Source of the DNA: Mobula hypostoma | Lineage: Eukaryota | Reading direction: 5' to 3' | DNA: 64,000 bases | NCBI RefSeq assembly: GCF_963921235.1 | Contig: NC_086097.1 | Coordinates: 122,018,001 to 122,082,000 of the forward strand | Shown: piece after piece, positions 47,910 to 51,409 of the stretch | How positions within the stretch are numbered: position 1 is the stretch's first letter | Layout of the letters: each line of letters starts with the position of its first letter | The notes under the pieces: model-generated | The model's input: only the letters and a program-made list of their open reading frames with translations | Told to the model about the DNA's origin: nothing | The model's database searches: none | Made by a program: the position numbers and the translations under genes

Positions 47910-48790
47910 CAAACTCTAAAACCTCTGCACCTCCCTCTACAAATGGATCCTAGACATCCTCATCGGGAGACCACAGTCAGTGCCGATCCCAAATAACGTC
48001 TCCTCCTCAATAACAATCAACACTGGCACACCTCAAGGATGTGTACTTAGTCCGCTGCTCTACTGTCTACACCCGTGACTGTGTGGCTCTATTGCTATCT
48101 ATAAAGTTGACAATGACATAACTGTTGACAGCAAAATCTCAAATGGTGATGAGAAAGCATGCAGTGGTCAGACAGATCAGCTGGTTTCACAACATATGCC
48201 GGTGATATTAAGTCTGATTTTGATTCTGGTCGAGTGGTGTCACAACAACCACCTTGCACTCAATATCAGTAAGACCAAGAAATTGATTGTGGACTTCAGG
48301 AAGGGGGAAATGAGGGAACACACACCAGTCCTCATCAAGGGATCAGCAGTGGAAAGGGTGAGCAGTTTCATGTTCCTGAGTGTCAGCATCTCTAAAGGTC
48401 TATCCTGGGCCCAACATATTGAAGCAATTACAGACCAACTGCAACATTTCGACTAGCAACTTGAGGAGATTTAGAATGCCAGCAAAGACTCTAGCAAATT
48501 TCAACAGATGTACTATGACATGTACATAATGACAATGATGATGGCTGCCGAGAGCATTCCAACCGGTTGCATCACCATCTGGCAAGGAAGGGCCAACGCA
48601 CAGGATCGAACAAATCTGCAGAGGGTTGGAAACTCAGACAACACTATTATGTGCCCTAGCCTCCCAACCATCTTTAAAAAGGATGGGTCAAAAAGGGGTG
48701 ACATCCACCATTAAGGATTTCCAGCACCCAGGATATACTCTTGTCTTATTACTACCATCAAGGAGTGGATACAGGAGCCTGAAAACATGC
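47910..48790 (+). mobile_element. Rex1/Babar-type RT fragment
   Basis: [36 protein letters not shown]. Confidence 0.8.
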
Positions 48791-49046
48791 ACTGATGCTT
48801 TGCTGCACACTTGAGTGCTTGGTGGGGGGTGCTGATGCTTTTGTGCTGGTGGGGGAGGGAGGGTTGTTGCTTTGCTGCTGCTTGTGCATGGGAAGGGGTA
48901 GCTGGGGGTGCCTTTCGGGTTCTAACGTTTAACTGTCTTTTGCTCTTCCAGGCACTCCTCTATTTTCGTGGATGTTTGCAAAGAAAAAGAATTTCAGGAT
49001 GTATATTGTATACATTTCTCTGATATTAAATTTATCTATTGAACCT

Positions 49047-49736
49047 ACCATATAACATCAAAAGATGTAAGCATACTGCAGGTTGCTCAGGAGTGGAAAA
49101 TGGATGTGGACTTGGAAAAAAAGCTTGTGTTTCCCCCAGACATTGCGGCTACAACACTCCGGCCAGACATGGTTCTGTGGTCCACAACAGCCAAACTGGC
49201 ATATGTTGTGGAATTGACAGTACCATGGGAAGATAGTGTCAAAGAAGCTTATGCGAGGAAAAAGACTAAGTACTCTGAATTGGCAACTGAAGCTGCCCAG
49301 AATGGCTGGAAGACCAAGGTTTTCCCTGTAGAAGTGGGATGCAGGGGATTCGTTGCTATATCTACGACCAGTCTATTGAAGAAGATGGGGGTGAGGGGTC
49401 ACTCCCTCCAACAAGCAATCAAGTCCTCGTCAAATGCAGCAGAAGAAAGCAGCAACTGGATTTGGATTAAAAGGAAAGACAACAACTGGGTTGCAAGATG
49501 AAGACAGGAGGGTATGGAACTGAGGGGGGTGAATCACGGATGCCAGGTAGCAACATTGAGCCCTCTGGAGACGTTGTGGGCTTATCAACGAAACGTCAAA
49601 GAAAGAGGGTGCCCACCTGATGACCCCGATGACGTACTTATACTCCCTCCTTTGTCACCATTCCAAACTCACTGCCAACATTGAGAGTGCCGACTTACCA
49701 TAGGGATTGAAACATCAAGTCCTAGTAGCTCTACTA
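49047..49736 (+). mobile_element. Hero-clade (RLE-class) non-LTR retrotransposon, 5'-truncated
   Basis: Open frame to 49501 with LRPDMVLWS...VELTVPWE...KKTKY..L...GWK...PVEVGCRGF; 235-nt 3' UTR; 9-bp TSD ATTGAACCT (49038-46 and 49737-45). Confidence 0.88.
49561..49632 (+). ncRNA. Candidate hammerhead-like ribozyme with non-standard topology and a kink-turn, in the Hero 3' UTR
   Basis: GAAA 49590-93, CTGATGA 49617-23, stem III GACGT/ACGTC, NUH triplet GTT 49573-75, stem I GTGGGC/GCCCAC, k-turn GGA / AAA-GAA closed by CCCTCT/AGAGGG. The base of stem II is mismatched; activity is unknown. Confidence 0.6.
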
Positions 49737-51409
49737 ATTGAACCTCAATTTTTAGAAAGAGCCTATTTCCCCATTACCATTACACTACCTCTCTACTTTT
49801 GCTCTCTTTGTGCAATACACACACACACACACATACACTGTATACTTTTACTGTGATTTATAGTATATTTTATGCATTGCGCTGTGCTGCTGCCACAAAA
49901 ACAAATCATGACACATGTCAGTGATAATAAACCTGATTTTGATTCTGATTCTGTCTGTCAGTCTGCCCTCCATTATCAATAGCAACATAATGTGGATTGA
50001 GTATTCACGTCAACATATCCCCTGGGGCCAGTGGTGCAGCAGAGTGCTGGGGCTTCCTGATTTCAACCCCGCAAGGCTGGCTCTGCCGTTAATACCGCTC
50101 TCCAATGTTCATTCCCTGGAAAACAAACTGGATTACCTTCGTCTACAACTGACCCAGTGAGAGATGAGGAACTGCTGTGTGCTTATTCTTACAGAAATAT
50201 AGCTCCAGGCCAACATTCAATGCACCATCAATCTTCAGGCCATGCCACACAGGGACTTGAACAAATGTTATTTTGTGACTGTACCACAACTATGATAACC
50301 ATATCGAGTACGCAGAGCAGACACAATGGGTTGAATGGCCTAATTTTGCTCCTATGTCTTACGGTCTTATATGTGCTATATTGTTACTATAGGTGCTGCG
50401 TGTGGTTATATAACTGTGTTTTGCACCTTGGCCAGAGAGGAACGATGTTTTCAGTAGCTTTACATAAGTATATGTCTTGATGACAATAAACTTCGACTTG
50501 AATCTCAACTTGAAAGATTCATCTGATTTCCTTTTTATAACATTTGCTCTGCAAAGCACAACTGAGTTTGCATCCTCCTTCCTTTTGTTCTCCAGTAAGC
50601 AACTGAGCAGCTGGTTGCACTAAATTGCATTTGTTGACAGAGTGCAGCCAGAATCCATTTATCTGAAAGTAGAAATCTGTTCACTTTCTAATCGAAAGTG
50701 CTATATTTCCTGCTGCTATTAATTGACATTGAATTCACTGGTTTTTTTTTGGAATTAAGGGCCATTGTGATGTAGTTCAGTTTTGTTCAAAGTACTCAGA
50801 CACCCATCTATCCGCATAAGATATTGATGATATTGCTGAGCCTAATCACCTTTCTCAATCGTGGTCCATTTCGGCTTTGCATTAGTGGAAAGCCACATTT
50901 CACAAGGCAAAACAATTTAGGAACAGTCTATTCCATCAGGCTTTCTCTCACGGTAATTGTTTTTAAATCAAATCAAAATGTGTATGTATCCCGAAGCCCA
51001 GGGAATTGTCATTAGTATTATTGACCTCCATAGGGCAGTACTTCCCGCTATCAATTGGCAGCCAGCTCCTGCAGCCAGACTTGATGTGAGCCAGACAACT
51101 CACTTATTATGAATCAGGAACGAGGTGACCTCAAAGGCACAGGAAAGTGTGGCTCTGGCAAGCACTAAATCCAAACTGCCCTGCTTTCAATTAAGTACTA
51201 TATATTCGCCCCAATGCCACTGACATCTTCCTGTATGAGAGATGAAAAGAGCAACCAATTATTTATGTAATGTGCTTTTACAGTGCGGTCGCTGCTCCAT
51301 CAAGATTTCAGGATTCAAGATTCACGTTTTAAGATTCAAATTTATTTATCACTGAAACGTGTCCTTTGTACAAACAACCAACAATGGTGTGTTGGGGGCA
51401 GCCCACAAG

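Follow-up and report, generated by a model that had tools for sequence, protein, structure and literature searches.

A conserved hammerhead-like RNA domain with rewired strands at the end of the open reading frame of Hero-like retrotransposons

The window analysed here is the whole 64,000-nucleotide (nt) stretch of Mobula hypostoma DNA at positions 122,018,001 to 122,082,000 of contig NC_086097.1, and all coordinates refer to it unless a locus is named. It contains a 5′-truncated copy of a retrotransposon lacking long terminal repeats (non-LTR) that resembles the Hero family. What remains of its open reading frame (ORF) ends in a TGA stop codon at 49499–49501, and is followed by a 3′ untranslated region (UTR). 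This part of the window is a decayed, 5′-truncated copy of a conserved RNA domain of ~100–150 nt, situated at or just after the ORF end, which combines the core of the hammerhead ribozyme with an unusual strand order (Table 1). The window copy is dead: its ORF is cut to 152 codons, the nucleotide at 10.1 is A, the hairpin termed Pa has decayed, and H17 is T. Self-cleavage by this copy is not expected. It is the fossil that led to the family, and its own activity is not the point.

The host element is recognizable from its protein. C-termini 52–83% identical to the ORF remnant were found by protein search in reverse-transcriptase proteins of ~1100–1180 amino acids (aa) from fishes and other organisms; the taxa with relatives include many fishes, one lamprey, and one ray. 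The reverse-transcriptase proteins span 984–1180 aa overall; full-length relatives of 984–1173 aa carry PF00078, a C-terminal Cys/His knuckle, and a PD...ELT motif, within a single ORF where the reverse transcriptase precedes the zinc knuckle and the PD-(D/E)xK nuclease; only the last part of this ORF is left in the window, and a Pfam search with the 152-aa remnant returned no family. The same architecture is described for R2-group non-LTR elements, among which the fish HERO elements are reported not to be site-specific (PMC3636483). The 3′ terminus of the element lies at ~49735, where 30 copies of the same genome lose their likeness and the flanks diverge. The insertion flanks of 29 copies differ, indicating that there is no specific target site. 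Copies in the genome are ~92–94% alike, and the 27-base 3′ end has 1401 matches in the 3.5-Gb genome with up to 3 mismatches, compared with 0 for a reversed control. The element is a restriction-like-endonuclease non-LTR retrotransposon that appears to belong to the R2 group and to be Hero-like. The name Hero, given in an initial annotation made from the letters of the window, is plausible because the protein architecture is that of the R2 group. The lack of target specificity agrees with it as well; the comparison covered these two properties.

Table 1. Features of the retrotransposon copy and its RNA domain in the window. Row counts refer to the 68 rows of alignment A3.
Feature	Position	Strand	Basis or remark
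ORF remnant, last 152 codons, with PD-(D/E)xK restriction-like endonuclease domain	49043..49501	+	reading frame and protein relatives
P0 5′ strand, GGGG, pairs with 49624–27	49524..49527	+	helix directly after A9
Hairpin Pa, between P0 and stem II, decayed here	49528..49554	+	16–28 nt hairpin in most relatives
Stem II 10.x strand, ATTGA here	49555..49559	+	covariation with 49585–89
Helix X 5′ strand, CCCTCT	49561..49566	+	covariation; counterpart of the type-SGC stem I/II "interaction" stem
GGA, non-bulged strand of kink-turn-like loop	49567..49569	+	A in 58/68, G in 47/68 rows
Stem III 16.x strand, GACGT, ends in U16.1	49570..49574	+	covariation; U16.1 in 67/68
H17, T here; predicted cut 49575/49576	49575	+	H17 never G in 68 rows
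Stem I 1.x strand, GTGGGC	49576..49581	+	covariation
Linker TTA, 3 nt	49582..49584	+	linkers of 3–6 nt in relatives
Stem II 11.x strand, TCAAC	49585..49589	+	covariation
G12 A13 A14	49590..49592	+	near-invariant in 68 rows
Stem III 15.x strand, ACGTC, begins with A15.1	49593..49597	+	A15.1 in 67/68 rows
Kink-turn-like bulged strand: AAA (L1–L3), G.A, A.G, then A	49598..49603	+	G in 58/68, A in 59/68 at sheared-pair positions
Helix X 3′ strand, AGAGGG	49604..49609	+	covariation
Stem I 2.x strand, GCCCAC	49611..49616	+	covariation
C3–A9, CTGATGA	49617..49623	+	core conservation in 68 rows
P0 3′ strand, CCCC, directly after A9	49624..49627	+	helix position in relatives
Remaining 3′ UTR to element 3′ end (...GTAGCTCTACT, without poly-A)	49628..49735	+	end of similarity among 30 copies

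Relatives of the domain were obtained as the DNA around nuclease-domain matches in metagenome contigs, fetched by protein similarity alone, of which the best 80 of 323 confirmed stretches (42–74% protein identity) were kept. These loci carry L numbers. In most of these loci a first look for CTGANGA located the word ~100–130 nt 3′ of the protein match, and each of the four nucleotides occurs at N. Alignment A2, made with MAFFT, has 60 rows, the window and 59 loci, admitted by a filter that asks for CTGANGA with no more than 2 changes, for a word resembling GAAA, and for base pairs in stems I and III; neither stems II and X nor H17 were ever used in choosing rows. Because the A2 rows had been chosen by a motif filter, a covariance model encoding only two nested helices, X and III, was built from A2 and run against all 80 loci. 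At E ≤ 0.01 it finds the motif in 71 loci, every one on the ORF strand and just 3′ of the ORF. Four of these matches fall in loci missed by the word filter, three with an exact CUGANGA (L095, L097, L110) and one with UUGAAGA (L035), and five of the nine loci without a match have fewer than 140 nt 3′ of the ORF. The 68 distinct rows from this search form alignment A3.

The helices are supported by compensatory change. In A2, 94.0% of 1333 cells are paired as against 30–46% when the 3′ partners are slid by 1–3 columns, two-sided changes occur in 20 of 23 pairs, and neither the pairing nor the covariation score of the alignment is attained in any of 500 shuffles. The corresponding values in A3 are 94.8%, 29–46%, and 21 of 23. 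Across the two alignments, stem I is 95% paired with both sides changed in 6 of 6 pairs, helix X is 92–93% paired with both sides changed in 5–6 of 6, and stem II, formed by 49555–59 with 49585–89, is 94–95% paired with both sides changed in 4 of 5; stems I, II, and III range over 94–96% paired with 4–6 two-sided pairs per helix. The fold is almost certainly real. Much of it had been recognized in the initial annotation, which quoted CCCTCT, GACGT, T49575, GTGGGC, GAAA, AGAGGG, GCCCAC, and CTGATGA, all of them where it placed them, and proposed a hammerhead core in register with crossing strands, a reading now backed by conservation and covariation. Its stem I, its stem III with A15.1-U16.1, and H17 are kept in distant relatives with compensatory changes far above chance, and the helix CCCTCT/AGAGGG with its G.A/A.G kink-turn-like loop is likewise conserved there with compensatory change. 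Stems I and III and helix X thus covary as it had proposed, and stem II covaries only in the form given in Table 1.

The core of the domain agrees with that of a hammerhead. Among the 68 full A3 rows, U4, A13, and A14 are found in 68, G5, A6, A9, U16.1, and A15.1 in 67 each, G8 and G10.1 in 66, and G12 and C3 in 64, and an exact CUGANGA lies directly 3′ of the stem I strand in 61. The 15.1–16.1 pair is A-U throughout. Of 66 lettered cells for the 10.1–11.1 pair, 56 are G-C and 8 are G-U, and the pair is never swapped. Position N7 is free (U 30, C 22, A 10, G 6), and at H17 there are 26 rows with U, 22 with C, 20 with A, and none with G. At 49555, the position of 10.1, the window copy has A and other copies have G. 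Within the window's own family, 56 of 58 further genome copies could be parsed, of which 41 carry C at H17 and 15 carry T; this bears out the suggestion that the GUU triplet of the window is a GUC decayed at a CpG. The core is conserved in the way expected of catalysis rather than of shape alone, and intact copies are likely to self-cleave after H17. The genome also harbours another, far more abundant Hero-like lineage, for whose nuclease domain a first look gave 11,736 candidates. A single 251-nt piece (L171), the sole copy of that lineage here, has its own intact-looking ribozyme, in which the helices differ in sequence and H17 is A.

The strands of the domain follow one another in an order that requires the helices to cross. 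Reading 5′ to 3′, the first half consists of P0 5′, the Pa hairpin, IIa, X 5′, G-G-A, IIIb-H17-Ib, and a linker of 3–6 nt, and the second half of IIb-GAA-IIIa, NNN-G-A-N, X 3′, 1–3 nt, Ia-CUGANGA, and P0 3′. In bracket notation, helices II, X, III, and I read ( [ { < ) } ] >. All three stems are tied together through helix X, with none open-ended or closed by a simple hairpin loop. One nucleotide separates IIa from the helix X 5′ strand, and the far ends of I, II, and X meet in a three-way junction. The other junction lies at the active site. A9 continues into P0, and G10.1, ~60 nt upstream in the sequence, is preceded by Pa, so that these two nucleotides are not adjacent as they are in described hammerheads. 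The RNA chain therefore both enters and leaves at the catalytic core, by way of the step from A9 to G10.1. The layout there is probably a four-way junction with nearly no unpaired nucleotides, whose arms are the core G.A pairs, stem II, Pa, and P0.

Helix P0 is very variable in sequence, and its 3′ strand begins 0–2 nt after A9. It is short in the window's sub-family and reaches 9–15 base pairs (bp) in most relatives; at least 7 contiguous bp are present in 46 of 59 loci, and the mean longest run is 9.4 bp, compared with 5.7 in shuffled controls. The decay of Pa in the window copy is visible at 49532, 49536, 49537, and 49553, where other copies read differently. At the joint between helix X and stem III, the signature of a kink-turn, a 3-nt bulge with G.A and A.G, adjoins helix X in most rows, although not in all. 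In the Kt-7 kink-turn consensus, a 3-nt bulge is followed by G.A and A.G beside the regular helix; the domain resembles it in the G and A of both strands, at the frequencies given in Table 1, and departs from it in that the loop is not universal and some lineages differ. Judged from this sequence pattern alone, the X–III joint is probably a kink-turn-like bend. In one group of loci (L055, L070, L083, and L099) the loop is swapped for an opposite-strand bulge of 6–7 nt, and in another (L089, L098, L102, and L108) for a 1×4 loop with an 8-bp helix X. A small hairpin, GCAG(U)...(A)CUGUAU, lies 10–20 nt 3′ of the P0 3′ strand in L065, L066, L057, L076, L088, and others, with compensatory changes in its stem.

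The closest known ribozymes are the natural non-circular hammerhead permutations reported by Eckert, Friedrich, Weinberg and Weinberg (Nucleic Acids Res 2023; PMC10085705), who describe types SGC and CSG and one GCS candidate from metatranscriptome and metagenome data, the type-SGC examples being metatranscriptome contigs reached via hairpin ribozymes. As described there, type SGC runs IIIb-H-Ib, ~3 nt, IIb-GAAA-IIIa, 0–44 nt, Xa, Ia-CUGANGA-IIa, 1 nt, Xb, and it cleaves in vitro at the predicted site, with compensatory rescue in all four stems. The domain shares with it the core, the order of the cleavage-site, GAAA, and CUGANGA blocks, the link of ~3 nt between stems I and II, and a fourth helix that ties the far ends of stems I and II together and is linked to the far end of stem III. 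This fourth helix corresponds to X, which covaries here, with I–II linkers of 3–6 nt and a II–X link of 1 nt. The two differ in connectivity. In type SGC the 10.x strand and the second X strand come after CUGANGA, and stem III and X are where the termini of the RNA lie (PMC10085705), whereas here both strands lie upstream, the X–III loop is kink-turn-like, and the chain is open at A9/G10.1 with P0 and Pa inserted. The fold is thus a circular permutation of type SGC, cut inside "block C" between A9 and G10.1, with a strand connectivity that is new. The six-type scheme in the same report assumes that blocks "cannot be interrupted".

Literature searches returned no description of a hammerhead opened at A9/G10.1, and no paper that ties a hammerhead to Hero, R2-group, or restriction-like-endonuclease elements (subscription-only papers were not covered in either case). 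The main text and supplement of PMC10085705 contain no link of non-circular hammerheads to retrotransposons or to eukaryotic genomes. The statement in the initial annotation that the topology is undescribed is therefore half right: non-circular permutations, including the S-G-C order, were published in 2023, and the connectivity found here differs from the published ones.

Hammerheads are represented in Rfam by the families Hammerhead_1, Hammerhead_3, Hammerhead_II, HH9, and HH10. With Rfam 15, neither the window stretch (E ≤ 10) nor any of 8 relatives (E ≤ 1) gave a hammerhead match, as expected because the helices cross. The sole Rfam match among the 8 relatives, isrG, is spurious and sits on a tandem repeat with a period of ~21 nt (L103, 1–123). 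Like the domain, type I, II, and III hammerheads have three stems around the same core nucleotides, obey the NUH rule, and carry a G10.1-C11.1 pair. They differ in having an open stem and hairpin-closed stems, neither of which is present here, where in addition the helices cross. The hammerheads of Penelope-like elements and retrozymes are also borne by retroelements, 3′ of the ORF, and are repeated in head-to-tail units (PMC4209133, PMC7229834, PMC11167929). They are of type I or minimal and belong to elements whose reverse transcriptase is of another kind and which, in the case of Penelope-like elements, encode a GIY-YIG nuclease; the element studied here is of the R2 group with a PD-(D/E)xK nuclease, and its ribozyme is rewired. 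The ribozymes of R2 and other non-LTR elements that resemble that of hepatitis delta virus (HDV) are likewise self-cleaving RNAs that free element RNA from a co-transcript (PMC3774820, PMC3383444). They have a different fold, lie at the 5′ end of the element, and are reported to cut at their own 5′ edge, whereas the domain lies at the ORF end. Alternative readings of the pseudoknot, and of the hairpin array in the 5′ leader, as an HDV-like, pistol, twister, or hairpin ribozyme were considered by eye only and rejected, as the helix order does not fit.

The position of the predicted cut bears on its function. In relatives it lies at a median of 46.5 nt 3′ of the stop codon, and in the window's family it is ~160 nt upstream of the element 3′ end. 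It therefore cannot make that end, and no examined copy ends there; processing or protection of the 3′ end, the role proposed in the initial annotation, is not the one to which this context points. The arrangement of copies suggests a different use. In 17 metagenome loci the N-terminus of a next copy follows in the same orientation; 38 loci extend for at least 1000 nt downstream, and 14 of the 17 are among them. Where units overlap, their likeness is 90–96% in three loci and 68% in a fourth. In the window's genome, 3′-terminal element sequence is found just upstream in 5 of 20 loci fetched by the protein N-terminus, and in 4 of those 5 the join is identical, the element 3′ end running straight into a conserved leader. 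This join of 3′ end and 5′ leader occurs 24 times in the genome, and of the 27 copies of the first leader hairpin, 22 are located at such a join. Among 12 join-bearing copies, 7 continue upstream past the preceding unit's ribozyme and 5 end before reaching it. Longer-than-unit templates therefore exist, with a ribozyme ahead of a complete unit.

One 9.1-kb contig (L064 and L069) holds two different elements, ~68% alike, directly head to tail, which suggests insertion beside an existing copy rather than a copied multimer.

The domain is read here as a conserved, rewired hammerhead that self-cleaves and processes longer-than-unit transcripts, a statement that as a whole is moderately probable. 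Intact copies would cleave after H17, at the equivalent of 49575/49576, and would thereby cut head-to-tail, longer-than-unit transcripts into unit-length RNAs. This part of the reading is tentative, the most likely of the roles considered though short of probable; it is proposed because the element is often head to tail and copies of more than one unit exist. The two ends of the cut RNA would stay clamped by ~20–35 bp (stems I, II, III, and X, together with P0 where it is long), and such clamping would permit religation, or reverse transcription across the cut. The stop codon usually falls within P0 or Pa; a ribosome terminating there would open the closing junction, and this placement suggests that folding and translation may be mutually exclusive. 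The model would resemble that of the hammerheads in Penelope-like elements and retrozymes, and the activity of the closely related type-SGC connectivity, which cleaves in vitro at the predicted site, provides a precedent (PMC10085705). A bolder version, which we regard as somewhat unlikely, would have the four-way junction at A9/G10.1 and the kink-turned cage form a further connectivity beyond the six block orders, active in animals, with religated circular or end-joined RNAs being copied repeatedly to give arrays and longer-than-unit copies.

Several observations weigh against this reading. No 5′ end at the predicted cut is found among 29 solo copies, detected with a probe wholly 3′ of the cut, or among 12 junction copies; the ends of the solo copies are scattered. 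Every one of the 29 solo copies, like 7 of the 12 junction copies, extends across the predicted cut, and their templates were therefore uncut, religated, or bridged. Head-to-tail joins are rare in the genome, with 24 as against 1401 3′ ends. Core changes occur in 7 of the 68 rows, including two U3 sub-lineages that may be inactive. To our knowledge, A9 and G10.1 are contiguous in every described hammerhead, with at most 1–2 inserted nt. Finally, the 80 loci stem from a handful of metagenome projects and may not count as 80 independent lineages, and A3 is only partly free of the selection bias of A2.

The main rival explanation, which is unlikely, holds that the domain is hammerhead-derived but cleaves rarely or not at all, serving as a rigid structure at the border of ORF and 3′ UTR that is recognized by protein, such as the element's own reverse transcriptase, or in ribonucleoprotein (RNP) assembly. 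It would account for the fact that every examined genomic copy spans the cut, and it draws on related R2 elements, which are reported to bind pseudoknotted RNA (PMC12222951); the cage-like closure would, moreover, hold cut products together in any case. What it leaves unaccounted for is the near-invariance of G5, A6, G8, G12, A13, and A14 combined with a free N7 and an H17 that is never G. The U3 sub-lineages speak on both sides. They comprise 4 rows, UUGACAA with A8 in L039 and L041 and UUGAAGA with G8 in L035 and L036, and both retain all helices, as a structural role would lead one to expect. The 3–8 base pair belongs to the active hammerhead fold, and in the UUGACAA variant the double change of U3 and A8 preserves it as U3-A8. 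These sub-lineages (L039, 2965–3042; L041, 1553–1630; L035; L036) lie near the window's family.

A second rival, quite improbable, takes the ribozyme as active but as a regulator of the single unit. By cutting the 3′ tail, which is the priming end, off the ORF, it would balance mRNA against template, and ribosomes that end in P0 or Pa would switch it off. The stop codon is indeed placed for this: among 46 loci with a clear P0, 29 have it within the closing elements (22 in Pa and 7 in P0a), and 7 others have it no more than 15 nt before P0a. Most genome copies are also solo rather than head to tail. Against this, the cut would separate the ORF from the end at which reverse transcription starts, a costly step; no copies begin at the cut, and the longer-than-unit copies are left unexplained.

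The remaining two alternatives are refuted. The fold of the initial annotation formed stem II from TTATC (49582–86) and GATGA (49628–32), giving the order IIIb-UH-Ib, IIb-GAAA-IIIa, Ia-CUGAUGA-IIa. These strands pair at 5 of 5 positions in the window copy, but their equivalents average 2.2 of 5 in 59 relatives and reach 5 in none, which means that no 10.x strand directly follows CUGANGA in an uninterrupted S-G-C block. The strand order fails because the stem II assignment fails; the 10.x strand lies upstream, where 49555–59 covaries with 49585–89 and provides G10.1-C11.1. The C.C mismatch at 10.1–11.1, noted earlier as a caveat, was an artefact of the wrong stem. The other alternative is that CUGAUGA, GAAA, and short complementary words came together in a repeat by chance, for which nothing speaks except the prior expectation that a scan of many windows will meet such words. 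It is refuted by the 71 of 80 protein-selected relatives that carry the motif at an equivalent position on the ORF strand, and by the compensatory changes seen in four helices.

Cleavage by intact copies would mean that a helical junction at A9/G10.1 is compatible with the hammerhead active site. The working assumption of the six-permutation scheme, and with it the basis of motif searches, would then be broken, and ribozymes of this kind would be invisible to Rfam models. Non-circularly permuted ribozymes would be more than an environmental circular-RNA curiosity, with thousands of copies in vertebrate-type genomes. For R2-group elements, which are currently engineered as gene-insertion tools, this would be a second type of self-processing RNA, and the domain could define RNA ends or make circular templates. 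As a compact natural RNA that is multiply pseudoknotted and rich in covariation, it is useful for structure work.

Other features were observed around the domain and its element. The 5′ leader contains 4–5 short hairpins of the form CUGG-loop-CCAG, with loops that are often GAAAG or GAGAG and with UGAC spacers, and is kept while the ribozyme helices vary. The array is seen in L142 (~1310–1400), L149 (~1317–1400), L145, and L148, and follows ~50–100 nt after the ribozyme in L057, L064–L067, L073, L075–L077, L094, L100, and L103. It has no Rfam match and could be a protein-binding or translation element. Within the window, positions 47920–48456, just 5′ of the Hero-like remnant, hold frame-shifted fragments of an unrelated reverse transcriptase of a long interspersed nuclear element (LINE), and a (CA)n run lies 3′ of the element at 49805–49830.

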